Sequence record: MT427400.3
Reading direction: 5' to 3' (one strand)
Origin: Escherichia phage phi2013
Length of the DNA stretch: 49,833 bases
Part shown: positions 1 to 49,000 of the stretch, piece by piece
Layout: each line of letters begins with the position of its first letter
Position numbering within the stretch: the stretch's first letter is position 1
Program-made: the position numbers and the translations under genes
The notes under the pieces: model-generated
Database searches by the model: none
The model's input: the letters and a program-made list of their open reading frames with translations, nothing else
What the model was told of the DNA's origin: nothing

Positions 1-35
1 GGATCTAGTGTGGACTGTAAGCACTGAGCGGTAAA

Positions 36-78
36 TAGCACTTTTTGTTAAAACCGGATCGGGATAACGCGGTATAGT
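36..78 (+). promoter_or_regulatory. early promoter cassette: TAGCAC-N5-TTGTTA palindrome-like box, 22-bp spacer with GC hairpin, -10 TATAGT
   Basis: tagcactttttgttaaaac at 36-54; gggataac/gttatccc dyad; TATAGT at 73-78; ATG at 110. Confidence 0.5.
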
Positions 79-109
79 TATCCCATCAACAACGAATGAG
101 AAAACGAAG

Positions 110-304
110 ATGGAAACGCAAATTGACGTAGTGGTTGTTCAGCGAGACTCAACTCATGAAAAGGGTCTGTTTAAGAAGGGAACGGAAATCACGATCGACC
201 TTGAGGATATGGTTGCTTATCACTCTGGACTTACCTGGAACGTGGTGCGCGTAGGCAGCGACTATAAACTCAAAGGCTTTAACACTTACTTTGCAGAGGC
301 TTAA
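110..304 (+). CDS. hypothetical early protein
   Basis: 64-aa ORF directly downstream of promoter cassette; stop abuts next gene. Confidence 0.5.
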   Translation: METQIDVVVVQRDSTHEKGLFKKGTEITIDLEDMVAYHSGLTWNVVRVGSDYKLKGFNTYFAEA

Positions 305-306
305 TC

Positions 307-777
307 ATGACAACCATTACCGTATTTCTGGCTAAAGATGAGATTGATGGCGAAATGTCATTCTTCGCATTTGAGCACAAAACCGGATCGCACTGGCATA
401 TGTATAGCCGCTACACGGTTATCGATATCAACTCATACCGCGCAGGCTCACTTACTGAAAAGCTGGGTTGCTTCATTGGAGCTATCAAGGTGAACAATGG
501 CTGCGAGTGGGCAGATGAGCACGAAGAGCGCCGCATGTGCAATATGATTAACCCGGTCTATCTTGAGTCGTTCGAGCTTGATGCTGATGTGAACATTAAG
601 GTGAGAAAGTCTGGTGAGTTATTGCCAGGGATGCGTGTGCTGACTGGTTACTCGGGCCGTAAGGTGTGGCGCACCGTATCGAAGATTCGCCAGCGTTCTG
701 CAACATGCTACAGCGTATTCTTTGAAGATGGCTGGAATATGATGTCCGGTAGTGAGGTGAAGTATCTCACCAAATAG
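307..777 (+). CDS. hypothetical early protein
   Basis: 156-aa ORF, tightly packed after preceding gene. Confidence 0.55.
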   Translation: MTTITVFLAKDEIDGEMSFFAFEHKTGSHWHMYSRYTVIDINSYRAGSLTEKLGCFIGAIKVNNGCEWADEHEERRMCNMINPVYLESFELDADVNIKVRKSGELLPGMRVLTGYSGRKVWRTVSKIRQRSATCYSVFFEDGWNMMSGSEVKYLTK

Positions 778-817
778 CACGAATTGTTAAAACCGGATCG
801 GGGTATCTTGCTATAGT
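775..817 (+). promoter_or_regulatory. early promoter cassette (TAGCAC-N5-TTGTTA, 22 bp, TGc-TATAGT extended -10)
   Basis: tagcacgaattgttaaaac 775-793; ggggta/tacccc dyad; TATAGT 812-817. Confidence 0.5.
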
Positions 818-855
818 TACCCCATCGAAACGAGATACCAATCAGAGGAATAACC

Positions 856-1086
856 ATGTCAATCGTCAAGAACCAGCAAGCCATCGATTAAACCAATAAC
901 AACCGCTTTGCTATTTTCATCACATCGATAGGTCGCCGATTTGCAGTCAAAGCCGTTCCGGGTGGATACAAAACCTACATGGAAGATAAAGGAAAGTGGG
1001 TGTGGTGCGAAAACCTTGCAAACTTCCTAGTCTGGAATGCAGACCTCCAGGGCTTTGATGATATCAGCACCTTAATTGAGGAATAA
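856..1086 (+). pseudogene. early ORF interrupted by in-frame TAA at 889-891 (nonsense mutation, readthrough or sequencing error)
   Basis: strong SD cagaggaa then ATG 856; 11 codons, TAA, then the same frame stays open 64 codons to 1086; no ATG to restart. Confidence 0.35.
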
Positions 1087-1092
1087 ATAATT

Positions 1093-1320
1093 ATGCCACG
1101 TTACAATAAACAGACTAAACTCACCCGCGTAAACGGGCACATGATTCCGGCTGAATCCACTCACTACGCAATGGGCGCAAAGCACGGAGTCTATTTCAAG
1201 TGGCGCGGTCAATGGAACTTCACGGCGGTTAGTAATTTCTACATGCGCGTCCCAGGTATTGACCCGCAGACGGTCGTAGAGGACTCAATCGGCAACAACA
1301 AGATCGAGGTGCTAAAATGA
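1093..1320 (+). CDS. hypothetical early protein
   Basis: 75-aa ORF. Confidence 0.5.
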   Translation: MPRYNKQTKLTRVNGHMIPAESTHYAMGAKHGVYFKWRGQWNFTAVSNFYMRVPGIDPQTVVEDSIGNNKIEVLK

Positions 1321-1423
1321 ACTTCAATACAATTGCTTTATGGTCTGCCGTCTGGTTCTTCTGTATGGGTCATGTCATGGTTGGAATCGTAGTTATGCTG
1401 CTACTGTGTGCGGGAGCGTTCGA

Positions 1424-1597
1424 ATGATGCGCATTCTGATTTGCATGATGGCGGCGGTCGCACTGGCTATCCTGGTAGTGTCCGGCTGCGGAGAGGCCAA
1501 AGAGCGATGCCATGAAACCGGAAACCAGGTTACTACTTTCGTGATGGTTGGCAACGTATTGCTACCAATCACATCAAATGAAATCACTTGCGAATAG
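1424..1597 (+). CDS. small putative lipoprotein
   Basis: SD gggag 7 nt before ATG 1424; N-terminus MMRILICMMAAVALAILVVSGC has a hydrophobic signal and lipobox-like VSGC. Confidence 0.5.
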   Translation: MMRILICMMAAVALAILVVSGCGEAKERCHETGNQVTTFVMVGNVLLPITSNEITCE

Positions 1598-1606
1598 GAT
1601 GTTAAA

Positions 1607-1798
1607 ATGGCTGATTTTATGCACCAAATGATTGCAGTATTCAAAGGTAGTGATGACCAGGAGGTGAAAGAGTGCTTTACTGTAGACAAGCCTTATAGCG
1701 CATCGCTAACCAGCTTCGGGAATATCTCATTGCTTGATGATAACGGCGACCCCTGGGTATTCGACGAAGACACTGATTGCTTCGAAATTAAAGAATAG
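1607..1798 (+). CDS. hypothetical acidic early protein
   Basis: 63-aa ORF, D/E-rich C-terminus. Confidence 0.45.
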   Translation: MADFMHQMIAVFKGSDDQEVKECFTVDKPYSASLTSFGNISLLDDNGDPWVFDEDTDCFEIKE

Positions 1799-1838
1799 CA
1801 CTTTTTGTTAAAACTCAATATCGGGGTTGCGCTATAGT
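1796..1838 (+). promoter_or_regulatory. early promoter cassette
   Basis: tagcactttttgttaaaac 1796-1814; 22-bp spacer with ggggtt/aacccc dyad; TATAGT 1833-1838. Confidence 0.5.
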
Positions 1839-1869
1839 AACCCCATCGACAACAAACGAGGACACTAAC

Positions 1870-2358
1870 ATGAAAATCAAATTGCTTTGCACTGGCGGTT
1901 ACAAGGGCTTTACTCGCGACCTGGAAGCGGATCCTATCGTGATTGATGCGGTGAAGTGTGATGATAGCCTCGGCGGCTACCGCGTGAAGGTTGACGACCT
2001 GGTGAAAGCTGGCGTGTACGATCTGGGCTATGGACTTTCGGTTAGCCCGGTAGTTGGTCCGGCAGACTTCAACGAGAAGGATGGAACGATGTTCTTCTTC
2101 GAATGGGAAGTCCAGGCAAATCCTAAGCCGCGCAAGGTTCGTCTTCTCAGTAATGGCGGCTACCCGATGCGTCCAGGTTATGAGAATCGCACATTCCCGG
2201 TTATCGTTGACTTTGAAGAAATCACCGCACACTTAGCTTATATCAACGGTGAACAGCTTCATGCTGTTGGATTCGTGGGATGTATGAATCAAGAGGCGCT
2301 ATGCTTCTTCCATTGTAAAGCCGAGCCGTTCGATATTGAGTGCGAGTTAGTATACTAA
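1870..2358 (+). CDS. hypothetical early protein
   Basis: 162-aa ORF with SD acgagg upstream. Confidence 0.55.
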   Translation: MKIKLLCTGGYKGFTRDLEADPIVIDAVKCDDSLGGYRVKVDDLVKAGVYDLGYGLSVSPVVGPADFNEKDGTMFFFEWEVQANPKPRKVRLLSNGGYPMRPGYENRTFPVIVDFEEITAHLAYINGEQLHAVGFVGCMNQEALCFFHCKAEPFDIECELVY

Positions 2359-2399
2359 GCACGAATTGTTAAAAGGGGATTTGGCCTGACTGGTATAAT
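2357..2399 (+). promoter_or_regulatory. early promoter cassette
   Basis: agcacgaattgttaaaa; 22-bp spacer; TGg-TATAAT at 2394-2399. Confidence 0.5.
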
Positions 2400-2429
2400 C
2401 CCCGCATAAACCACTAAGAGGAAAGCATC

Positions 2430-2936
2430 ATGTTAAAATTAGAAGACGTAAAATTCCCGATTAAATTTATCAGCCTAGGTTGCGGTGAAATTACATTCAC
2501 CAGTGAAGATAAAGGCAAGTGGGACAATGATAAAATGTCTCAGCTTAAGTTGGATTGGTTTATCAATCGGCACAATGAAGTAAATCCTGAAAACTCAGCC
2601 AAGAAGGATTACCATTACATTATTAGTGGTAGTCAGGATGCGTACGAAAAGTATGATGGTTGGAAAACTGTTCGATCAATCTTCCACCCCGCAAAGCCAG
2701 AAATTAAACCGATGTTACAATGCGCTCAGATCGAGAACATTCCATTGAGCGCGACGCTAAAAGGAGTGCAGCTTGATGATAAATCCTGGCTTGAAATAAC
2801 CGCCACGCCGAAAACTATTGAAGTGCACGACGATATCGTCACTCTTCTATTGCATTACGGCAGCTTTAAGCACAAAGCGGTATCAGGTGAAATCAGCATT
2901 AAGCGCGGAACACTTGTGCGCTATGAGGTGAAATAA
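2430..2936 (+). CDS. hypothetical early protein
   Basis: 168-aa ORF, SD aagagg. Confidence 0.55.
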   Translation: MLKLEDVKFPIKFISLGCGEITFTSEDKGKWDNDKMSQLKLDWFINRHNEVNPENSAKKDYHYIISGSQDAYEKYDGWKTVRSIFHPAKPEIKPMLQCAQIENIPLSATLKGVQLDDKSWLEITATPKTIEVHDDIVTLLLHYGSFKHKAVSGEISIKRGTLVRYEVK

Positions 2937-3082
2937 TGGCTGCATGGGTTTTGATTATCTTAATGAGTACCGGGCCGGATCACGTATACATGGAAAGTCA
3001 GCAATCATGAAACAAGGTACGGGAAGTAATTGCAGAGAATAAGCCGTTCGGATATGAAGTAAAAACGATGTGCGTTAAACGA

Positions 3083-3125
3083 TAGCACGAATTGCTAAAC
3101 CTTCCGCAAGGCCATTTGATATAGT
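3083..3125 (+). promoter_or_regulatory. early promoter cassette
   Basis: tagcacgaattgctaaac; TTGCTA 3092-3097; 22-bp spacer with aaggcca/tggcctt dyad; TGa-TATAGT 3120-3125. Confidence 0.5.
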
Positions 3126-3165
3126 GGCCTTATTGAAGCAAGGCAACCAATCAGAGGAATCAGCT

Positions 3166-3372
3166 ATGGCTACACGACTAACTCAGTGGCAGATTTACGA
3201 CAAGGCCTCACGCCTTCGTGAATCGCTTCGCGGACTGACGCCGAATGACCGAATGGAGATTATCGGGCACGCATTGCACGAACTAACATCTCAGGACGTA
3301 ATCTATCATTCATGCGGCAATAAATTCTGGAACGTGACATTCGAGGTAAAGAAAGATGAGCAAAACTCATAA
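3166..3372 (+). CDS. hypothetical protein
   Basis: start chosen at ATG 3166 after SD cagaggaa (track ORF begins 3124). Confidence 0.45.
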   Translation: MATRLTQWQIYDKASRLRESLRGLTPNDRMEIIGHALHELTSQDVIYHSCGNKFWNVTFEVKKDEQNS

Positions 3373-3643
3373 GTTAAAAATCGCCCCGATACATTTCATT
3401 GGTGTAATGAACGGAACCAAAACGGCAGAGTTCCGCATCAATGACCGCAACTTCCAGGTTGGTGATATCCTTGAGCTACGCGAGTTCGATCGTGACGACT
3501 TTACCGGGTGGGAAGTTCACGCCAGGGTGTCCGATGTTACAGACGTGACGCCATACATCAATCGCGGTTATGACGAGCAAGAATGCGACTTCACGCAATA
3601 CGTGATGTTATCAATCAAGCCTTACAGGAAGGTTAGACCATGA
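3356..3643 (+). CDS. ASCH/DUF3850-like (PUA-fold) protein
   Basis: 95 aa; pattern GxKTAEFRxNDRxFxVGDILxLxE recalled as typical of DUF3850/ASCH. Confidence 0.55.
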   Translation: MSKTHKLKIAPIHFIGVMNGTKTAEFRINDRNFQVGDILELREFDRDDFTGWEVHARVSDVTDVTPYINRGYDEQECDFTQYVMLSIKPYRKVRP

Positions 3644-4278
3644 AATTTGAGTGCGTATCAAGTAGCGGATCTGGTTTTAAGTGGGGAAAAACTTACAAAG
3701 GTGTTCGCGTAAATGATGACAGCTTCATCATTACTGATGAGAACGGTTGCAACGTGAACGTTGTACGGCGTCACGAATATCAGGAAATTTTCCTGCCTTA
3801 TGGCGGTAGCTCAAAATATATCTTCCATCGAATCGTGGATGGTGTTAAATTTAACGACGTAATCGAAGCAATCAACCAACTGCATAATAAAGAGGTAAAA
3901 TTTATGAAATTCGAATGTATCAGCGACAACACTAAAAAATTTACCGTTGGAAAAATTTACAACGTTCCTTCTGAGCACGCTAAGCACACTTTAGCGCTGA
4001 CCGACGACACAGGCTGCCAACGCATTGCAACCGTGACGCACAATGGCGAAGGTCTTCGCTGGAACAGCGGCGGCACTAAGTTCGCAACTTTCGGTAAGAA
4101 GCGCAAGCGCAATTTCCGCGTCAACGGCAAGATCAACACCAGCAAGATTAGCAACGTCAAGCCTATTAATGTTGACCACAAGCCAGAGCTTGATCTTAAA
4201 GGCAAGGTGGATATTCCTGATATGGCTTTAGCGATCCTTATTCTTGTTGCTCTAATTTCTATCATGCTCATCATGTAA
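3640..4278 (+). CDS. hypothetical protein with internal tandem duplication and C-terminal transmembrane anchor
   Basis: two copies of MKFEC(V/I)S...GK(T/I)Y(K/N) about 85 aa apart; C-terminus MALAILILVALISIMLIM hydrophobic. Confidence 0.55.
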   Translation: MKFECVSSSGSGFKWGKTYKGVRVNDDSFIITDENGCNVNVVRRHEYQEIFLPYGGSSKYIFHRIVDGVKFNDVIEAINQLHNKEVKFMKFECISDNTKKFTVGKIYNVPSEHAKHTLALTDDTGCQRIATVTHNGEGLRWNSGGTKFATFGKKRKRNFRVNGKINTSKISNVKPINVDHKPELDLKGKVDIPDMALAILILVALISIMLIM

Positions 4279-4285
4279 TTTTAAC

Positions 4286-4319
4286 GGGGAATTGGCTCTG
4301 AGCGGTTCCCCTTTCTTTT
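4286..4319 (+). terminator. rho-independent terminator
   Basis: gggga...tcccc stem followed by TTTCTTTT. Confidence 0.5.
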
Positions 4320-4426
4320 GGAGAAAACACTATGCCAGACTTTTCTAACTGGAATAACGAGCCGCCATCATTTCAGGAGTTGCTATTCTGCCTCCTGGTC
4401 CTGACATTATCTCTTAAGGGTGTTTT

Positions 4427-4645
4427 ATGGCTACTATCATAACAGCAGAAGATGCAGCACGCGACGCAGTGGAAGGAATGCGCCCAAATACCTCCAGAAT
4501 AGCACACTACTACAAATCTGAGGTGTCGGCAGTGCAATTGGTCAACGAAATTTTAAGGCTACCACAAGTCGATTCAGCGCGCGTGGTGACGTGCTTAAAA
4601 AATTATTTTTGCATCGCTATTAAAACGAATAGCACGAATTGCTAA
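4427..4645 (+). CDS. hypothetical protein
   Basis: 72-aa ORF. Confidence 0.4.
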   Translation: MATIITAEDAARDAVEGMRPNTSRIAHYYKSEVSAVQLVNEILRLPQVDSARVVTCLKNYFCIAIKTNSTNC

Positions 4646-4672
4646 AACCTATCAAGGGGAATGCGCTATGAT
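4630..4672 (+). promoter_or_regulatory. early promoter cassette
   Basis: tagcacgaattgctaaaac; 22-bp spacer with gggaat/attccc dyad; TATGAT 4667-4672. Confidence 0.5.
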
Positions 4673-4702
4673 TCCCATGCACCAACAAACGAGGAAGCAC
4701 TC

Positions 4703-5149
4703 ATGAAACACTTAATTTGCATTGAAACGCCTAACGACCAGCACACCCTGCACGGCATTGGAATGTTCAAAGGTCACTACATGACAGCAAGTATTCATGA
4801 TTCGCGTTGCGTCAATGGCGATCTGATGATTACGTCAAAAGAAGTAACTCCGTACATTATGCAGAATCTTGGCAATAACGAATATATGGCCTACGGATGC
4901 AATGCGGTGTACAAGCATATCAAGATCAGAAAACGCGTTGTTCGCGCATTCAAGAAAATTGCAATGAAACAATGGAAGATGAGCAAGAAAGATGCTGGAC
5001 GCTGGGCGCGTAACGTTGCAGATTCATACTTCTACCGTAACGGTGAGTCCTGCCACTTCCTTATCGATGAACTTATGGAAAACTACGGCGGCGACTTCAG
5101 TCAGGGTGGCTTTGACGCTTGGGCTGACTACGAGGTCGATTACTGGTAA
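4703..5149 (+). CDS. hypothetical protein
   Basis: start at ATG 4703 after SD acgagga; 148 aa. Confidence 0.5.
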   Translation: MKHLICIETPNDQHTLHGIGMFKGHYMTASIHDSRCVNGDLMITSKEVTPYIMQNLGNNEYMAYGCNAVYKHIKIRKRVVRAFKKIAMKQWKMSKKDAGRWARNVADSYFYRNGESCHFLIDELMENYGGDFSQGGFDAWADYEVDYW

Positions 5150-5192
5150 TAGCACGAATTGCTAAAACTTGCTCAAGGGCATTTGATAGAAT
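5150..5192 (+). promoter_or_regulatory. early promoter cassette
   Basis: tagcacgaattgctaaaac; 22-bp spacer with agggcat/atgccct dyad; TGa-TAGAAT 5187-5192. Confidence 0.5.
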
Positions 5193-5232
5193 GCCCTTCG
5201 TTGAGTTAAGCAACCAATCAGAGGAATAAATC

Positions 5233-5844
5233 ATGGATAAAATTACCATTTGGGGCCAGACAATCAACCTGTTTCTCGGCACGCGCCGCGTAGCAATCTT
5301 TGACTTTGATGGAACACTTAGCGATGGATCTGGTCGACTTCACCTGCTACCTACAAAGGATTTGCACTTAACTGAAAGCTGGTCCGAGTTTAACCGCGCG
5401 GCAATATTTGACAACCCTATCCAAAGCACGATCGATGTGATGAACTCTATGTATGCCGCTGGTCATCATGTGATCATTTTAACCGGGCGAAGTGATGAGG
5501 TGCGTTACGCATCTGAGTTGTGGCTTAAGCATCACGGCGCTCGATATGATTACCTGATTATGCGACCATACACCGATAACCGGAAAGACACAGTAATGAA
5601 AGAAGAGGCGGTGCGCGCGATCGGCATTGATAACATTCTGGCGGCCTGGGATGACTCACCGCAAATTATTCCATTATTCCGCTCACTTGGAATAACCACT
5701 TACGCTGTAGTTGACTATGGCGATAAAGTTCACGATCATTTAAAATCTCACGGGGTAGATGAGGTTTGCAATCATGAACCATCTGAGCCGCTACCGCCAT
5801 TTGGTGAGAAAATTTGCATTAAGTGCAAGGAGTTATTGAAGTGA
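5233..5844 (+). CDS. HAD-superfamily phosphatase, polynucleotide 3'-phosphatase-like
   Basis: DxDGT motif (FDFDGTLSDG), ILTGRS, RKDTVMKEE; recalled as resembling the T4 Pnk phosphatase domain; C-terminal CxxC...CIKC. Confidence 0.6.
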   Translation: MDKITIWGQTINLFLGTRRVAIFDFDGTLSDGSGRLHLLPTKDLHLTESWSEFNRAAIFDNPIQSTIDVMNSMYAAGHHVIILTGRSDEVRYASELWLKHHGARYDYLIMRPYTDNRKDTVMKEEAVRAIGIDNILAAWDDSPQIIPLFRSLGITTYAVVDYGDKVHDHLKSHGVDEVCNHEPSEPLPPFGEKICIKCKELLK

Positions 5845-5952
5845 ACCTATACGAATTTATTGCAGCACATCCGGTACTAACAGTTATCATTCTGTTAATC
5901 ATAAACTCCACCATCATCAATGTGGCGAAATTATTTTTAGGGAGATACTGAC

Positions 5953-6525
5953 ATGAAAACAGCTATCATTTTAAACGGTGCGCCTGGCGCGGGAAAAGAC
6001 ACTATAGGGTGCATCCTGGCTGACACTTACGATCATGTAGCGCTACGCAGCTTTAAAGCTCCAATGTTTGAGATTGCCCGAGCAATCCTGGGTGAGACTA
6101 ATTTTGAGTATTTCATGTTCTTGTATGAGGACCGTCGCTATAAAGAAGAGCCAGCATCAATCCTGAACGGTAAAAGCCCGCGCCAGTTTATGATCTGGAT
6201 TAGCGAGGAGGTTATCAAGCCGCAGTTCGGAAATCGCTTCTTCGGTATGCGAGCGGAAAGCAAGGTGAAAGAGTCTCACTCCCTTTCGGTATTTACTGAC
6301 GGTGGATTCAAAGACGAAATCTTGCAGATGATTGAAGGTGAAATCCAGGTCAAGCTATGTCGAATCCATCGCAACGGTTGCAACTTTGACAACGACAGTC
6401 GCGACTACATCTATCTTGACGATATGATCGGGGTCAACGGTTATCAGGAATGTGACTTCTTCTCTGTCGAAGGTCATCCAGAAATTACCGCTCAGCACAT
6501 AGCCGCCACGTTCATCAACAAATAG
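5953..6525 (+). CDS. P-loop nucleotide kinase, dNMP kinase-like
   Basis: Walker A GAPGAGKDT at N-terminus; LNGKSP motif recalled from T4 gp1-type dNMP kinase. Confidence 0.6.
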   Translation: MKTAIILNGAPGAGKDTIGCILADTYDHVALRSFKAPMFEIARAILGETNFEYFMFLYEDRRYKEEPASILNGKSPRQFMIWISEEVIKPQFGNRFFGMRAESKVKESHSLSVFTDGGFKDEILQMIEGEIQVKLCRIHRNGCNFDNDSRDYIYLDDMIGVNGYQECDFFSVEGHPEITAQHIAATFINK

Positions 6526-6565
6526 CACGAATTGCTAAAACGTCGGTGGGGTGACTTGATATAGT
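6523..6565 (+). promoter_or_regulatory. early promoter cassette
   Basis: tagcacgaattgctaaaac; 22-bp spacer; TGa-TATAGT 6560-6565. Confidence 0.5.
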
Positions 6566-6597
6566 TACCTCATCGACAACGAAGAGAGAAAATCGAA

Positions 6598-8310: not shown

Positions 8311-8334
8311 AACCCGCTTCGGCGGGTTTTTTTA
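8311..8334 (+). terminator. rho-independent terminator closing the early region
   Basis: cccgc ttcg gcggg then T7. Confidence 0.6.
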
Positions 8335-8386
8335 TGCCTGCAATATGGTAAAATAGCACTAAATGTTAAACAAAGAGGATGGATTT

Positions 8387-15041: not shown

Positions 15042-15084
15042 CATAAAAACACTTTGACGCTTTAACAAAAAGTGCTATTATTGA

Positions 15085-18785: not shown

Positions 18786-18861
18786 TCTGTAAAATCATCC
18801 TATCAACTCTATTCACTTAACTTTTAACAAAAAGTGCTATCAACCAATCAGGAGAAACATC

Positions 18862-22777: not shown

Positions 22778-22802
22778 AAGCCCGCCTTGCGCGGGTTTTT
22801 TT
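22778..22802 (+). terminator. rho-independent terminator
   Basis: cccgc cttgc gcggg then T7; same hairpin as 24958-24982. Confidence 0.55.
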
Positions 22803-22843
22803 GTAGCTGTAGAATGGTTGCAACTAAACAAGAGGAAAAGACA

Positions 22844-24957: not shown

Positions 24958-24982
24958 AACCCGCCTTGCGCGGGTTTTTTTT
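24958..24982 (+). terminator. rho-independent terminator
   Basis: cccgc cttgc gcggg then T8. Confidence 0.55.
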
Positions 24983-25030
24983 CGCCTGTATAATGAGTCC
25001 ACCGATAAATAGCACAAAAAGGTAAACATC

Positions 25031-34390: not shown

Positions 34391-34467
34391 AGTATAAACT
34401 CCTTAAGTAAATAGCACTAATTGCTAAACGCTGATTTTATCATTGTGCTATCCGACTTGCAATAGAC

Positions 34468-35440: not shown

Positions 35441-35487
35441 AATAAAAAACGCGTAGAAGGATGTTAACCCGCTACGCGTCGTTTGTT
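35441..35487 (-). terminator. hairpin terminator after HTH gene
   Basis: acgcgtag/ctacgcgt 8-bp stem with T-run on minus strand. Confidence 0.45.
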
Positions 35488-35940
35488 TTAACTAAAAATG
35501 CTATTGGTCGTTCCGATATCTTCCTTCTTCACGACGCGCATAAATTTCTTGTTCTTGCATCGCTTCTCAAGGCACTTGCCGTTACCGTCAAACTTCAGGT
35601 CGAATCGCAACCATGCGGCACGAAATCCTTTGCACCCCTGTCGGCGGTAAGCGCGATGCGCAGCTTCAGCGCCTTGCCATGAAATCATATTTCGATCTTT
35701 CCAGCCTTGCACCGTCTGATTGCTAACTTTTAGAGCCTTTGCGCAGGCCGCAGGGCCGCCGTAATATTCGATAAGAGCATCAAGTCGCGCTCGCAGTCCG
35801 GCGCGTGTTTCTTCTTTATGAATATAGAACCCGCAACGCTGTCGAGGCTTTTTATCTTTACCGCGCCGTGTTCCGTTGTTACCATTGATGTGACGTTTAT
35901 CGATTTTACCAGTTGATTCTGCGATACGTTGAATACTCAT
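35488..35940 (-). CDS. HTH DNA-binding protein (Cro/YdaS-like), candidate transcriptional regulator
   Basis: GGPAACAKALKVSNQTVQGWKDRNMISWQGA helix-turn-helix pattern; SD aggaga; divergent from helicase. Confidence 0.5.
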   Translation of the reverse strand: MSIQRIAESTGKIDKRHINGNNGTRRGKDKKPRQRCGFYIHKEETRAGLRARLDALIEYYGGPAACAKALKVSNQTVQGWKDRNMISWQGAEAAHRAYRRQGCKGFRAAWLRFDLKFDGNGKCLEKRCKNKKFMRVVKKEDIGTTNSIFS

Positions 35941-35953
35941 CTTGATTCTCCTA

Positions 35954-35996
35954 TAGCACTTTTTGCTAAAAACGTTTACTTTATGCCGTGTATTAT
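35954..35996 (+). promoter_or_regulatory. helicase promoter cassette (TAGCAC-N5-TTGCTA, 22 bp, TATTAT)
   Basis: tagcactttttgctaaaa; TTGCTA 35963-35968; TATTAT 35991-35996; the palindrome also covers the SD region of the divergent HTH gene. Confidence 0.5.
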
Positions 35997-36033
35997 AGCG
36001 TAAACGTTACAACGATTCAAAGGATTAATAGCC

Positions 36034-38052: not shown

Positions 38053-38465
38053 TTACAGACAAAGGTGATTATTTAGAGTTTTACGAGCGAGATCCCAGCG
38101 ACACTCGAAAGGAGGACGCTCATCAGGTGGATTGTGTGTCCTGGCTGAAATACAATTTCCCTCACCTTCTATTTTGGCACACTGTCAATGAAGGTGAAAA
38201 AACAATCACATCAGCGCTCAGGGATGAGCAGGCCGGATTACTTAAAGGAGTGTCGGACTTCGTTATCCTGATTGGTGTTAACTCAAGATACCCGTTTGCA
38301 GCAATCGAACTTAAGCGGGTTAATAAGTCAGGCAAAGGAAAGGCGTCACCAGTCAGCGACAAGCAAAGGGAATTTCTCAGAAAGGTCATGGAGCGTGGCG
38401 GCTTCTCTGCCGTCGCATACGGATTTGAGCAATTCAAGATCGCAATTTACGAAATGATGAAATAG
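38049..38465 (+). CDS. VRR-NUC domain nuclease (PD-(D/E)XK)
   Basis: GVSDFVILIG...AAIELKR (D...ExK) and SDKQREFLRKV...GG pattern. Confidence 0.6.
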   Translation: MITDKGDYLEFYERDPSDTRKEDAHQVDCVSWLKYNFPHLLFWHTVNEGEKTITSALRDEQAGLLKGVSDFVILIGVNSRYPFAAIELKRVNKSGKGKASPVSDKQREFLRKVMERGGFSAVAYGFEQFKIAIYEMMK

Positions 38466-38508
38466 CACTTTTTGTTAAAACTGCCGGAATGGAATCTGGC
38501 ATTATTAT
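38463..38508 (+). promoter_or_regulatory. promoter cassette
   Basis: tagcactttttgttaaaac followed about 22 bp later by TATTAT-like hexamer. Confidence 0.4.
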
Positions 38509-38532
38509 CTCACCAACACTAGAGGACTAAAA

Positions 38533-39246: not shown

Positions 39247-39494
39247 TGAACGAGAAAATGATTCCGGTTAAGTTAACTGATCAAGGTTTATGGCTGCTTT
39301 ATCGAGCTACCTGCTGCGAAATTATGGAGCGAAACGGATTGACTCAGGATGTTATTGGTTGCGATCTGTGGGAGTTCACTAGTTCTCTTGATATGTCTTT
39401 CGATGAGATAAAAAATGAATACATAGAGAATTGGCCTTCAATCATACAGAAAGACGTGGAAGAACTTAAAGCTGATACAATCGTACAGCACTAA
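39243..39494 (+). CDS. hypothetical protein
   Basis: ATG overlaps Dam stop (ATGA); SD gtgagga. Confidence 0.45.
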   Translation: MMNEKMIPVKLTDQGLWLLYRATCCEIMERNGLTQDVIGCDLWEFTSSLDMSFDEIKNEYIENWPSIIQKDVEELKADTIVQH

Positions 39495-39528
39495 TTGCTA
39501 AAAATACCCGACGAAAGTCGGGTATAGT
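39487..39528 (+). promoter_or_regulatory. promoter cassette
   Basis: agcactaattgctaaaa; 22-bp spacer with acccgac/gtcgggt hairpin; TATAGT 39523-39528. Confidence 0.5.
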
Positions 39529-39560
39529 TATTTCATAGAAACGAAATGAGGAATCAGAAG

Positions 39561-40330: not shown

Positions 40331-41482
40331 ATGTCACAAGCTAAAATCACTACCGAGCAACTTGTCGAAGAGCGCATGAACGGCCTTACACTTCGCGAGA
40401 TCGCGGAAAAGTACGGTATGCATATTCGAACTGTTGAGGCTCGACACGCAAAATTGGCAAAAGAAGGCCACTTTCACGGCAATGAGCATGTTGCTAAAAA
40501 CGTTCCTGAAGGCTTCATGGTAAAAGGCACATCAACAATGATTCGCGGTGATGGGACTGAGGTCGTGCGATGGGTTAAGACCGATCAGGACCGTGAGAAG
40601 ATTGCAGCTATGATGGAAGCTGCACGCATTGCATTTTGTGAAGACTTGCCGCGAGCAAAGCCAACTGAGCTGCTCACATCGCAAGGTCTTACAACCTCTA
40701 TTGGAAAGCTGGCACTATACCCGGTGTTCGATCTTCACATTGGCGCGCTTGCTCATAAGCATGAATGTGGAGAGAACTACTCTACCGACGTAGCGGAAAA
40801 AGTGCTTAGCGACTTCTTTAATTACGCGATCGATATTGCTCCGAACGCAGAGAAGGCCGTTCTTTTAATCGGCGGTGACTTCCTTCACTCGGACGGTCTT
40901 GATGCTGTTACCCCGGCAAGTGGTCACGTTCTGGATCAGGATTCACGATATGCAAAATTGGTGCATGTAGCTATTAGATCTGTTCGTCGCGCTATCGACA
41001 AAATGCTACTGAAACACAAAGAAGTCGAGGTCCAGGTTATCGAAGGGAACCACGATCAGTCTGGGATGATTTGGCTGCGCGCTGCAATGTCGGCATATTA
41101 TGAAGACGAGCCGCGAGTATTCGTTGACGTTAGTCCTATGATTCTGCATAAGACTCGTTGGGGAAATACCTTGTTGGGATACACTCACGGGCACACTATG
41201 AAAAAGGCAGAGACTCGACTCGCAGCTATGGCAGCAGATTTCCGCGCAGATTTTGGTGAAAGCAAATACGTGTACACGCATAGCGGTCACTGGCATCACC
41301 AGACAATCACTGAGCACTCACTCGGTATTGATGAGGTTCACGGCCAGTTAGGCGCGAAAGACGCATACGCAGCACGAGGAGGGTGGCGCTCGTATCGCCA
41401 GGCGGCTGTAATTGTTTACGATAAGCAATTTGGGGAAATCGGTCGTTTCATCTATCGTCCAGAAATGACAGGATCGCACTAA
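40331..41482 (+). CDS. calcineurin-like metallophosphoesterase with N-terminal HTH
   Basis: GDFLH, GNHD, GH and GHWHH metallophosphatase motifs; N-terminal LTLREIAEKYGMHIRTV helix-turn-helix. Confidence 0.65.
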   Translation: MSQAKITTEQLVEERMNGLTLREIAEKYGMHIRTVEARHAKLAKEGHFHGNEHVAKNVPEGFMVKGTSTMIRGDGTEVVRWVKTDQDREKIAAMMEAARIAFCEDLPRAKPTELLTSQGLTTSIGKLALYPVFDLHIGALAHKHECGENYSTDVAEKVLSDFFNYAIDIAPNAEKAVLLIGGDFLHSDGLDAVTPASGHVLDQDSRYAKLVHVAIRSVRRAIDKMLLKHKEVEVQVIEGNHDQSGMIWLRAAMSAYYEDEPRVFVDVSPMILHKTRWGNTLLGYTHGHTMKKAETRLAAMAADFRADFGESKYVYTHSGHWHHQTITEHSLGIDEVHGQLGAKDAYAARGGWRSYRQAAVIVYDKQFGEIGRFIYRPEMTGSH

Positions 41483-41516
41483 TTGATAAAAACTCCCGAA
41501 GGGATTCGGGCATAGT
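41476..41516 (+). promoter_or_regulatory. promoter cassette
   Basis: gcactaattgataaaaac; 22-bp spacer with cccgaa/ttcggg hairpin; CATAGT. Confidence 0.4.
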
Positions 41517-41546
41517 AACCACATCGAAAACAAAGAGGCTATATCA

Positions 41547-45047: not shown

Positions 45048-45076
45048 CACAATAAACTCCTTAGTTGACGGTGTGA

Positions 45077-45120
45077 ATGATACACCGCCAATGGTACACG
45101 CGTTTTGCAAAAAGTGCTAT
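45077..45120 (-). promoter_or_regulatory. promoter cassette (minus strand)
   Basis: minus-strand tagcactttttgcaaaa, 22-bp spacer, TATCAT, upstream of ATPase gene. Confidence 0.45.
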
Positions 45121-45123
45121 TGG

Positions 45124-45540: not shown

Positions 45541-45577
45541 GGCGCTAGCTCCTGATTGGTTATCTTGAATAAGGCCA

Positions 45578-45620
45578 CTTTATCAAATGACCTTACGGCA
45601 ATATTAACAAATCGTGCTAT
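45578..45620 (-). promoter_or_regulatory. promoter cassette (minus strand, approximate)
   Basis: minus-strand tagcacgatttgttaa then about 21 bp then TGa-TAAAGT. Confidence 0.4.
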
Positions 45621-45830
45621 TTACCAGGGAATATAATTGTCGTCGTCCTCATCAATATCATCACCAGGTAACTCGAAGTCTGGATTATATTCGCTTTCTG
45701 CGTCCATATCCATATTCCCTAGAGCGTCATCAAGCGTAATTTCTTTATACGCAACCTTTATACACCATTCCGCACTAAGCCCAGCATCAAGAGCGGCAAA
45801 ATAACGAGTCCAGAAATTATCCTGCTCCAT
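45621..45830 (-). CDS. small acidic protein with SSB-tail-like C-terminus
   Basis: about 30% Asp/Glu; ends DDIDEDDDNYIPW, compared with SSB tail DDDIPF. Confidence 0.5.
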   Translation of the reverse strand: MEQDNFWTRYFAALDAGLSAEWCIKVAYKEITLDDALGNMDMDAESEYNPDFELPGDDIDEDDDNYIPW

Positions 45831-46058: not shown

Positions 46059-46091
46059 TTTTAATTCCTTTGTTTCGTTTGGTGTGGGAGT

Positions 46092-46136
46092 AATATACCT
46101 TACCCCCTATTGTATGTCTTTAGCAATTCGTGCTAT
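46092..46136 (-). promoter_or_regulatory. promoter cassette (minus strand, approximate)
   Basis: minus-strand tagcacgaattgctaaa then about 22 bp then TATATT. Confidence 0.4.
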
Positions 46137-46275
46137 CAGTACTCAGAAATTACTTTGCACTCTTTGATTGTTCCACCCAAAACTACTTTCTGCATCATTG
46201 CTTTTTGTTGGCTATCGTAAACGCGAACATTTTTTACTCTGTTAAATTTGCCAGTATAGAAGGTGTGAATATAAA

Positions 46276-47177: not shown

Positions 47178-47208
47178 GATTATTTCCTCGTTTGCTGCTG
47201 ATGGGATG

Positions 47209-47252
47209 ACTATACCAGCCATCCCGGATGCGCGTTTAGCAAAAAGTGCTAT
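47209..47252 (-). promoter_or_regulatory. promoter cassette (minus strand)
   Basis: minus-strand tagcactttttgctaaa, 22-bp spacer with gggatg/catccc dyad, TATAGT. Confidence 0.5.
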
Positions 47253-47438
47253 TTAGAATTTTACTTCCTCAACAAGCTCAACCATTTTATAACCCAGGCG
47301 ATATGAGTCGCCGAACAACAACAGACCCATAAATTCATCGTTGGTTATCGACTCCTTACCAACAGTTTTAAGTTCTCCGTTGTGAATCACAGTATCGCCG
47401 ATCTTGATTTCTGATTTATGCACTAATTTCGTTTTCAT
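47253..47438 (-). CDS. hypothetical protein
   Basis: 61-aa ORF. Confidence 0.4.
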   Translation of the reverse strand: MKTKLVHKSEIKIGDTVIHNGELKTVGKESITNDEFMGLLLFGDSYRLGYKMVELVEEVKF

Positions 47439-47639: not shown

Positions 47640-47672
47640 TTTGTTTTTCCTCAATCTCGTTTCGATGAGGTA

Positions 47673-47717
47673 ATTATGCCAAATCGCACCGATCGAGTTT
47701 TAACAAAAAGTGCTATT
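47673..47717 (-). promoter_or_regulatory. promoter cassette (minus strand)
   Basis: minus-strand tagcactttttgttaaa, 22-bp spacer, CATAAT. Confidence 0.45.
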
Positions 47718-48613: not shown

Positions 48614-48645
48614 TGCCTGAGTCCTCTGATTGGTTGATGTGATGA

Positions 48646-48690
48646 ATCATACCCTGCCGACCTGGCTGAGTCGTTAGCAAAAAATGCTAT
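48646..48690 (-). promoter_or_regulatory. promoter cassette (minus strand, approximate)
   Basis: minus-strand tagcattttttgctaa then about 22-23 bp then TATGAT. Confidence 0.4.
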
Positions 48691-48740
48691 TCCAATAATT
48701 GCTCATTATTCCATCAATAGCGGAATAGGTGGAATAATTC

Positions 48741-48839: not shown

Positions 48840-49000
48840 ATCTAGTGTTGCCCGGTTCGCCTGGTAGTCATCTCCATTTTTAGCAAAAAGTGCTATCGAT
48901 TACACTTTACCTTGTCACAGATGTAATATTTGTCTAGAATCGCACTTGTGACAAAATTACACACTGTGACGCCTCTAAATATACATATAGATATATGTAT

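Follow-up and report, generated by a model that had tools for sequence, protein, structure and literature searches.

What does a short sequence do when it recurs between gene after gene of a phage genome? The question is raised by the genome of Escherichia phage phi2013 (record MT427400.3), the whole 49,833-nucleotide (nt) stretch of which is referred to here as the window. About 20 of its gene boundaries share one module, or cassette, of ~75 base pairs (bp), made up of a gene stop, a 21-bp box, a -10 hexamer 22 bp further on and an RNA hairpin. The box has been seen before: a 2024 re-annotation of phage TLS described a 21-nt direct repeat, aaATAGCACnnnTTGnTAAAA, in 18 intergenic copies that are oriented with transcription and lie ~76 nt before start codons, and that is found in T1, Rtp and Rogue1 as well (PMC11447400). 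The authors reported three sigma-70 promoters only and left the function of the repeat as an open question, proposing a stoperator, an enhancer or an UP element (PMC11447400). The TLS repeat is the same sequence element as the box of the window, and in the record of Citrobacter phage Stevie (KM236241) the same sites are annotated as unexplained repeat_region features. All of the evidence on mechanism is sequence-based and comparative; on that evidence, it is considered slightly better than an even bet that the module joins a gene end, a box-dependent promoter and an insulating RNA hairpin. Such a module probably explains, in outline, the repeat whose function was left open.

The phi2013 window, a Tunavirus genome (Drexlerviridae), is collinear with that of coliphage T1. 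T1 belongs to the classic set of seven T phages, and its family is abundant and used in therapy. The first 7 kb match Enterobacteria phage vB_EcoS_IME167 at 100% identity and phage JMPW1 at 99.9%. Small plus-strand genes occupy 1-8.3 kb, structural genes follow to ~29.5 kb, and recombination, replication and lysis genes come after them; small genes recur on the minus strand, where they form a second arm at 43.5-48.7 kb. The cassettes were compared among seven genomes from four Drexlerviridae lineages (the window, T1, TLS, Rtp, Klebsiella phage PKP126, SECphi27 and vB_EcoS-12210I) and in a larger set of 87 sources with 532 unique box copies.

An earlier note on this DNA had listed eight intergenic copies in the left arm, and these start exactly at 36, 775, 1796, 2357, 3083, 4630, 5150 and 6523 as it stated. 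The core TAGCA-N5-TGCTA that it described as an inverted repeat is present; the full pattern it gave, TAGCAC-N5-TTG(C/T)TAAAAC, has 0 matches, the true gap being N3. When the window was searched with the corrected pattern (TAGCACNNNTTGYTAAAAC, up to three mismatches), the box TAGCAC-N3-TTGYTAAAAC yielded 23 matches against 0.80 expected from the shuffled genome, a count attained in none of 100 shuffles. The total for the window is 19 full cassettes, two of them with a 23-bp spacer, and seven boxes without a -10 at that distance. A motif scan of IMG/VR returned chiefly single chance matches.

In 8/8 left-arm copies exactly 22 bp separate TTGYTA from TATAGT, TATAAT, TATGAT or TAGAAT. When the best -10-like hexamer was sought over spacers of 10-40 bp downstream of the box, it fell exactly at 22 bp for 101 of the 151 boxes in the seven genomes, and a hexamer of at least 4 bits occupied the 22-bp position at 105/151, against a background of 1.4%. 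The same peak is seen in the 532 unique copies (338 at 22 bp, 62 at 21 and 27 at 23). Information in the spacer is just 0.03-0.4 bit per position. Retention of the length while the sequence drifts indicates a stereospecific constraint. Positions that played no part in the selection criteria are also conserved, namely A-50 (103/108), G-14 (87/108), C-1 (74/108) and A+1 (92/108).

In promoter coordinates the box occupies -52..-31, with TTGYTA at -40..-35 and the centre of the dyad at -42; its bases G-47, C-46, C-44 and G-38 do not vary. Past the hexamer, at 7 nt, comes the conserved C(-1)/A(+1). An extended -10 TG at -15/-14 occurs in 47/105 cassettes and, in agreement with the observation that it is often present, in 5/8 left-arm copies, where G-14 itself is found in 8/8. 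The leader to the Shine-Dalgarno sequence (SD) is ~25 nt (median 25 nt) and is kept across Drexlerviridae lineages. Fixed -10 spacing, G-14, C(-1)/A(+1) and leader length, retained across a near-random spacer, bear out the description of the cassette as a reused promoter module. By a standard -35/-10 scan, a canonical sigma-70 promoter was found at 0/8 of the cassettes, the scan count being that of chance; no -35 hexamer lies at 16-18 bp, and TTGYTA sits 22 bp upstream of the -10. The make-up is that predicted for a sigma-70 extended -10 promoter (TAnnnT with TG or G at -15/-14), and a dyad centred at -42 with invariant spacing corresponds to the predicted arrangement of a class II promoter, in which the site is centred near -41.5. 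The failure of the scan, the centre at -42 and the recurrence of the box at operator positions (below) support the suggestion that the palindrome is a regulator site or an unusual element and not a -35.

The box also marks gene ends. The stop codon of the upstream open reading frame (ORF) lies in or adjoins the box in 92/105 cassettes, and in 44 the TAG of TAGCAC is itself the stop codon.

Several known elements were compared with the cassette and rejected. A sigma-54 promoter (TGGCAC-N5-TTGCW) does not fit, since the box TAGCAC-N3-TTGCT has AG for GG and is 2 bp too short; sigma-32 (CCCCAT after the -10), IHF and Fis were rejected by inspection against the position matrix. An UP element (A/T-rich, -59..-38) is incompatible with the invariant G-47, C-46, C-44 and G-38 and with a box that reaches -31, and a MerR-type promoter (19-20-bp spacer, conserved dyad) with a 22-bp spacer and a dyad that varies in sequence and position.

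The second component, the GC-rich dyad downstream of the box, had been described as lying inside the spacer, with variable sequence and kept pairing. The variation and the pairing were upheld, whereas the location was not: the dyad straddles the -10, with its 5' arm at ~-24..-17 and its 3' arm over the end of the -10 and the discriminator in the eight left-arm copies. Folded as sense RNA, these eight cassettes give -8.4 to -18.7 kcal/mol (z -1.2 to -5.7, with 7/8 at -2.6 or lower). Native cassettes average -11.1 kcal/mol, compared to -6.6 for chimeras in which the spacer of one cassette was joined to the -10 and discriminator of another (Mann-Whitney p = 2e-20). Stems were searched as inverted repeats with every mismatch penalised equally, and the mismatches observed on the top strand were nevertheless G·T/T·G in 27 cases and A·C/C·A in 2 (51 vs 2 in the larger set); these counts include related, non-independent cassettes, and the asymmetry is nonetheless large. 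It indicates that what is selected is pairing within the sense single strand, most simply RNA, so that the hairpin would matter in read-through transcripts and not in promoter DNA. The same asymmetry rules out a DNA cruciform or a symmetric protein site as the source of the variable dyad.

Orthologous cassettes point in the same direction. Those of cassette 3 carry a compensatory pair, GGGGTT/AACCCC in the window and T1 and GTGGTT/AACCAC in XJA18, ISF001 and AV106, and among orthologues a wobble pair was in several instances replaced by a Watson-Crick pair or the reverse. The chimera control, the compensatory changes and the mismatch asymmetry sustain the claim that the hairpin is selected. 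Two layouts are found among 86 good stems. In 54/86 the arms flank the -10, and the dyad centre peaks at -12.5; in 26/86 the hairpin lies upstream, and the T-rich -10 trails it like a weak U-tract. The next 8 nt hold a mean of 1.3 T after -10-flanking stems and 3.2 after spacer stems. Two spacer hairpins were called terminator-like by a scan tool, the stem of the primase cassette is followed by T7, and annotators of T1 and TLS labelled several hairpins of the spacer type as terminators.

The 3' arm ends at -1 in 5/8 left-arm copies (in the other three at -3 or +6) and in 22/86 good stems. As the predicted start falls at or after the 3' arm, the cassette's own transcript would lack the hairpin, which would be present only in read-through RNA of the upstream gene; because the upstream ORF ends in or beside the box, the hairpin is placed as a gene-end hairpin would be. 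Other explanations of the paired segment were tried. An N4-type hairpin promoter (5-7-bp stem, 3-nt loop, virion RNA polymerase) was rejected on loops of 3-27 nt, 3 nt being found in just 2/80 stems, and on the annotation of six relatives, which lists no RNA polymerase. A reading of the box itself at the RNA level, as a boxB-like 5-bp stem, fails on the variable loop, the A·C mismatch in reversed T-37 copies and the fixed spacing to the -10. GATC sites for Dam were present in the spacer of 17/109 cassettes, no more than the genome density, and a small peak at -28 merely extends the stem onto ATCG. No Rfam family matched in the window.

The eight left-arm cassettes are all on the plus strand. 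Cassette 1 (34..109) has its box at 34-54, its -10 TATAGT at 73-78 and a predicted start at A85, ahead of an ATG at 110; its hairpin (61-68/77-84) is GGGATAAC/GTTATCCC. In close relatives this cassette has a different hairpin, lying wholly in the spacer, with the same box, 22-bp distance and downstream gene. In cassette 2 (773..855, ATG at 856) the TAG of the box (775-777) is the stop of ORF 307-777, and the -10 TATAGT at 812-817, with TGc, is followed by a predicted start at A824; the hairpin is 800-808/815-823. The gene after it (856-1086) has TAA at codon 12, where T1 gene 75 has TCA; the rest of the frame is open and conserved, which indicates a nonsense allele or pseudogene in phi2013. 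Cassette 3 (1794..1869) uses the box TAG as the stop of ORF 1607-1798 and has a -10 TATAGT at 1833-1838 and a predicted start at A1845, and the GGGGTT/AACCCC stem occupies 1823-1828/1839-1844. The box of cassette 4 (2355..2429) is the variant AAGCAC, the TAA of which ends ORF 1870-2358; its -10 TATAAT (2394-2399, with TGg) precedes a predicted start at A2406, and the hairpin is 2375-2381/2397-2403.

In cassette 5 (3081..3165) the -10 TATAGT at 3120-3125, with TGa, lies before a predicted start at ~3132, and the arms AAGGCCA/TGGCCTT are at 3108-3114/3125-3131. Cassette 6 (4628..4702; -10 TATGAT 4667-4672, predicted start ~4679) has the weakest hairpin of the eight (z = -1.2), GGGAAT/ATTCCC at 4657-4662/4671-4676, which has 7 bp in T1. 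Cassette 7 (5148..5232) combines a -10 TAGAAT at 5187-5192, with TGa, and a predicted start at ~5199 with the hairpin AAGGGCATT/AATGCCCTT at 5175-5183/5190-5198. In cassette 8 (6521..6597) the box TAG is the stop of ORF 5953-6525, the -10 TATAGT (6560-6565) again follows TGa, the predicted start is A6572, and the long arms 6542-6556/6563-6577 contain G·U wobbles that pair on the sense strand only.

Further copies on both strands, which the earlier note had placed ahead of replication and right-arm genes, exist at 35954, 38463, 39486 and 41474 and, on the minus strand, at 45119, 45619, 46135, 47251, 47715 and 48689; the minus-strand coordinates it gave are the low coordinates of the -10 hexamers. 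The helicase cassette (35952..36033, plus strand) has its box at 35954-35972 and a -10 TATTAT at 35991-35996. The primase cassette (35454..35505, minus strand) carries the box variant TAGCAT..TAGTTA, and the loop of a true terminator, ACGCGTAG/CTACGCGT and then T7, contains its -10 TAACAT, with the predicted start within the 3' arm. Three plus-strand cassettes have spacer hairpins. In that of the methylase gene (38461..38532) the hairpin at 38482-38501 is entirely in the spacer, followed by CATTAT at 22 bp, and in the cassette at 39484..39545 the hairpin at 39504-39525 (ATACCCGAC/GTCGGGTAT) precedes TATAGT; these are the two that the scan tool called terminator-like. The third (41472..41545) has a degenerate box, TCGCAC..TTGATA, a spacer hairpin CCCGAA/TTCGGG and CATAGT at 22 bp.

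The right-arm cassettes are on the minus strand. The first, at 48639..48691, has a 23-bp spacer (TATGAT), as does the one at 46085..46137 (TATATT). Those at 47666..47717 and 47202..47253 have their -10 hexamers at 47673-47678 (CATAAT) and 47209-47214 (TATAGT), the latter with the hairpin GGGATGGCT/AGTCATCCC; the cassette at 45570..45621 (-10 TAAAGT 45577-45582) has a hairpin with sense-strand G·T, TAAGGTCA/TGGCCTTA, and that before a helicase gene (45070..45121) has TATCAT at 45077-45082.

The box is also found in positions expected of an operator. A reversed copy at 15059..15077 on the minus strand fills the 16-bp spacer of the capsid-gene promoter TTGACG-N16-TATTAT, a layout kept in T1, TLS, SECphi27 and PKP126 and absent from Rtp and 12210I. 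A box reversed with respect to the minus-strand tail-fibre promoter TTGCAA-N17-TAAAAT (34462-34434) lies at 34412..34430 on the plus strand, ~+4..+22 of that promoter, and is kept in T1, Rtp, SECphi27 and 12210I. Ahead of late genes, the palindrome had been placed between the -10 and the SD. This holds for two degenerate plus-strand copies, one at 8354..8372 between a post-terminator TATGGT and the SD of terS and the other at 25010..25026 between a post-terminator TATAAT and the SD and start codon of the large tail-tip gene. It does not hold for the capsid copy, in its promoter spacer, and is ambiguous for the near-perfect reversed box at 18821..18839 on the minus strand, between the major-tail terminator and the SD of the next gene. 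At the junction of the arms, a minus-strand box without a -10 (48877..48895) lies between divergent canonical promoters (48912-48940, plus; 48954-48925, minus). This divergent pair, at 48900-48960, is built on an inverted repeat, TTGTCACA...TGTGACAA, with the box on its minus-strand side. Since the box is found at canonical promoters in both orientations, it is probably read, through its palindromic core, by a DNA-binding protein; contact of this protein with RNA polymerase at the cassettes is suggested by the exact phasing. In the late units at 8311-8345, 22781-22812 and 24962-24996, a -10 (TATGGT, TAGAAT and TATAAT, often after TG) lies a few bases past a strong terminator; this order resembles the spacer-hairpin cassettes, but there is no box at -42.

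Which protein might read the box? The most likely candidate is a 150-residue homologue of T1 gp23, encoded at 35488..35940 on the minus strand, and is the transcriptional regulator that six annotated relatives name in common. Its gene has a canonical sigma-70 promoter, TTGAAT-N17-TATAAT (35992..36020, minus strand), with a reversed box in the leader directly before the SD, and the -10 of this promoter overlaps that of the helicase cassette back to back. A box is present in the regulator's leader in 7/7 genomes. The regulator and helicase promoters form a predicted autoregulatory divergent switch. The protein gives weak matches to P22_Cro and YdaS and belongs to PHROG 2856. Homologues were found in 824 phage records, all Drexlerviridae-like, and accompany the boxes in 87/87 sources checked; a search for more distant relatives gave only members of the same family, with 49% identity or more. 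A PDB sequence search with the regulator gave no match. In the AlphaFold model (predicted local distance difference test, pLDDT, 82) the N-terminal arm is basic and disordered, and the core is an all-alpha helix-turn-helix (HTH) of Cro type. This core matches Cro of Xfaso 1 and of N15, both all-alpha proteins (template modelling score, TM, 0.71-0.73), the N15 protein having been solved on operator DNA. The case for the Cro-like regulator as binder is circumstantial and is the weakest step in the argument; its chance of being right is put somewhat short of even. A second possible DNA binder is a GntR-type protein, not obviously in the window: a putative GntR-family regulator in Tlsvirus left arms is encoded at 5767-6237 of phage LL5 (TLS gp19).

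Taken together, these observations suggest the following mechanism. The box usually contains or adjoins the stop codon of the upstream gene. It covers -52..-31 of what would be a promoter for host sigma-70, one with an extended -10 (G-14, TAnnnT) but lacking a -35. A dimeric, sequence-specific protein on the box would contact RNA polymerase and substitute for -35 recognition, as in class II-type activation. This protein, possibly the Cro-like regulator, whose gene has a canonical promoter, would have the opposite effect at canonical promoters that a box overlaps or follows, such as those of its own gene and the capsid, tail-fibre and terS genes: there it would block transcription. The GC-rich hairpin between box and +1 would act on read-through transcripts only, as a leaky terminator and/or a barrier to 3' exonucleases that insulates each unit. 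The earlier observation is partly confirmed, with three errors of description, and its interpretation is supported.

Several points weigh against this mechanism. The box is only partly symmetric, with C-44 against T-40 and A-50 against A-34, and Y-37 (C 57, T 45) faces the invariant G-47, all of which is odd for a simple symmetric dimer. The predicted recognition helix of the regulator differs between lineages, whereas the box does not. An extended -10 with G-14 could function without any activator. No U-tract follows the eight left-arm hairpins, which are thus not canonical terminators, and the hairpin counts carry the non-independence noted above. Neither transcript-start or RNA-seq maps of T1-like phages nor the literal box sequence were found in the literature, and the same is true of 3'-end or binding data for these phages. 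Lastly, late promoters, if repressed, would need a further switch-on step, for which titration by replicated DNA is speculation. An extended version of the scheme, in which a single Cro-like protein runs the whole programme, is regarded as rather unlikely. Here the protein, produced at once from a canonical promoter, would activate ~17 cassettes from -42 and throttle its own gene, the arm-junction promoter and the late promoters (capsid, tail fibre, terS); replication, at ~25 boxes per genome, would titrate it, so that early genes fade and late genes fire, and the box may have been taken over by mobile elements to sense infection.

The box could instead be a factor-independent promoter element, read by host polymerase alone through the alpha C-terminal domains and/or sigma region 4, so that the early promoters are constitutive. 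Extended -10 promoters can work without a -35. Fixed spacing and a single orientation at cassettes are what such an element would be expected to show, TTGCTA resembles a -35, A-tracts flank the box, and UP-like elements were suggested in the TLS paper (PMC11447400). Sigma region 4, however, could not reach across a 22-bp spacer, UP elements have nothing like the invariant G/C core, and the conserved boxes that lie in either orientation in or just past canonical promoters, with no -10 at 22 bp, are left unexplained. On balance this alternative appears unlikely.

The boxes at canonical promoters would be explained if the box were a repressor operator and nothing more, comparable to the stoperators of L5, with the extended -10 promoters firing alone until a phage protein bound to the box turns early genes off and holds others back. 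Polymerase could be occluded by a box that overlaps the -35 region, and the idea was raised by the TLS authors (PMC11447400). A repressor has no need of exact 22-bp phasing across lineages with a near-random spacer; moreover, the phages are virulent, and the reading calls for one protein that represses early and late genes at the same time. This reading is judged quite improbable. An L5-type stoperator in the strict sense was rejected: the orientation is alike, but the sites are strictly phased to the -10, and the genome resembles that of virulent T1.

Very little probability is given to a host protein on the box, for which the candidate is Lrp. Its consensus from systematic evolution of ligands by exponential enrichment (SELEX), yAGhAwATTwTdCTr, was confirmed in the literature (PMC5554404) and has the same 5-N5-5 arms, so that TAGCA/TGCTA fit yAGhA/TdCTr; the centre is mismatched, with the invariant C-44 opposite a W position, and the information content of the box is far above that of typical Lrp sites. 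Box-like sequences on enterobacterial plasmids and an E. coli island, with no phage-regulator homologue nearby, would fit a host binder. The left arm of T1-like phage LL5 carries seven cassettes, and a Keio screen with this phage found only lipopolysaccharide (LPS) genes, tolC, secB and ppiB to be required and no transcription factor, envelope and chaperone genes alone (PMC7229145). A non-essential host transcription factor is thus unlikely to be needed.

The box as a loading site for a Q-like processive antiterminator, by which polymerase starting nearby would resist hairpins and terminators, has a similarly slight chance. The capsid box sits in a promoter spacer like the lambda Q-binding element, boxes follow several canonical promoters at +4..+40, terminators are closely spaced along the genome, and a plasmid AbiD gene (below) shows the order box, -10, terminator, gene. 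Cassette transcripts, on the other hand, are predicted to start so as to lack the hairpin, which makes antitermination needless, the fold of the regulator is that of Cro and not Q, and no pause-inducing element was identified.

Hardly probable as the chief function, if compatible with the other readings, is that the repeats are recombination substrates that shuffle small genes like the PeSLs of T4-like phages, regulation being secondary: cassettes bracket small, variable genes, the hairpin module of the cassette at 36 has been swapped between close relatives, and a ~820-bp block missing from T1 begins in the leader of the cassette at 3083, but just one end of this indel is in a cassette, and the exact spacing, the conservation of G-14 and +1 and the operator copies are unexplained. 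The block itself (window 3132-3903) holds three small genes, with its left junction in that leader and its right junction at the SD of the next gene, and is consistent with cassette-associated gene shuffling.

Box-like sequences were also observed on bacterial elements, with some box match in 289 plasmid records. E. coli plasmid NZ_CP076708 (retrieved stretch 3001-3130; also NZ_CP022281 and NZ_JBUZKM010000003) carries a perfect 22-nt box, AAATAGCACTTTTTGTTAAAAC, followed at 21 bp by TACTAT and further on by a terminator hairpin with T9, just before an AbiD/Abi_2 abortive-infection gene. This AbiD gene might serve in defence and be connected so as to detect T1-like infection. On plasmids of E. 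coli, Klebsiella and Salmonella (stretches 2496-2552 and 2503-2566), two to three tandem box-like elements precede a conserved gene of 163-170 codons, two copies of which are 49% identical at the protein level; it lies beside a DUF3800 gene, has no -10 at 22 bp and gave no PADLOC match. In E. coli ATCC 8739, an integrase-bearing island between intZ and eutB, which also has an HNH gene, contains an exact 20-nt box in non-coding DNA (stretch 4001-4020), found in ~420 E. coli records. It is ~175 bp upstream of an unannotated ORF for a 58-residue MerR/AlpA-like HTH protein, with no -10 at 22 bp.

The transcription programme of T1-like phages is essentially unmapped, and annotators report three to ten promoters per genome. 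To view the repeat as the upstream half of ~20 promoters of fixed geometry, each interlocked with a hairpin of read-through RNA, gives a testable answer to the question left by the TLS study. The 22-bp geometry would serve as a promoter-annotation rule for >800 related genomes and represents a compact, portable design for gene insulation. If a phage protein reads the box, the AbiD-linked copy would represent a case of a defence gene tied to the phage's own promoter code.

How does the cassette compare with known systems? Only the repeat had been described before; new here are the link to a promoter, the hairpin of the sense RNA, the stop-codon role and the operator copies. In the TLS paper there is no mention of an extended -10 at a constant 22 bp, of a hairpin on the sense strand, of a role in stop codons or of copies of operator type, and the Stevie record likewise ties the repeat neither to a -10 at a set distance nor to a hairpin. 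A close parallel in gene organisation is the PeSLs of T4-like phages, in which a repeated intergenic stem-loop and an early promoter lie between small, variable genes, and which were proposed to insulate and shuffle genes (PMC2839356, PMC4122927). In a PeSL the stem-loop precedes a canonical TTGACA-N17-TATAAT (PMC2839356, PMC4122927), whereas the cassette has no -35, a 21-bp box 22 bp before the -10 and a nested hairpin with the -10 in or beside its loop. Similar to the stoperators of mycobacteriophage L5 (cited in PMC11447400), the boxes are many asymmetric sites in short intergenic spaces, oriented with transcription; those of L5 are unphased to a -10, block elongation and serve the immunity repressor of a temperate phage, in contrast to the virulent phages considered here.

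In regulatory logic the cassette resembles class II promoters, where CRP or FNR binds at -41.5 and lambda cI at OR2, near -42, activates PRM. As in these, the dyad of the cassette at -42 replaces or overlaps the -35. The likeness would extend to repression where the site overlaps the core promoter and to an autoregulated regulator gene at a divergent pair, both proposed here from sequence. Unlike the class II examples, the site in the cassette is only partly symmetric and is reused ~17 times in a 50-kb genome, with the Cro-like regulator as the candidate binder.

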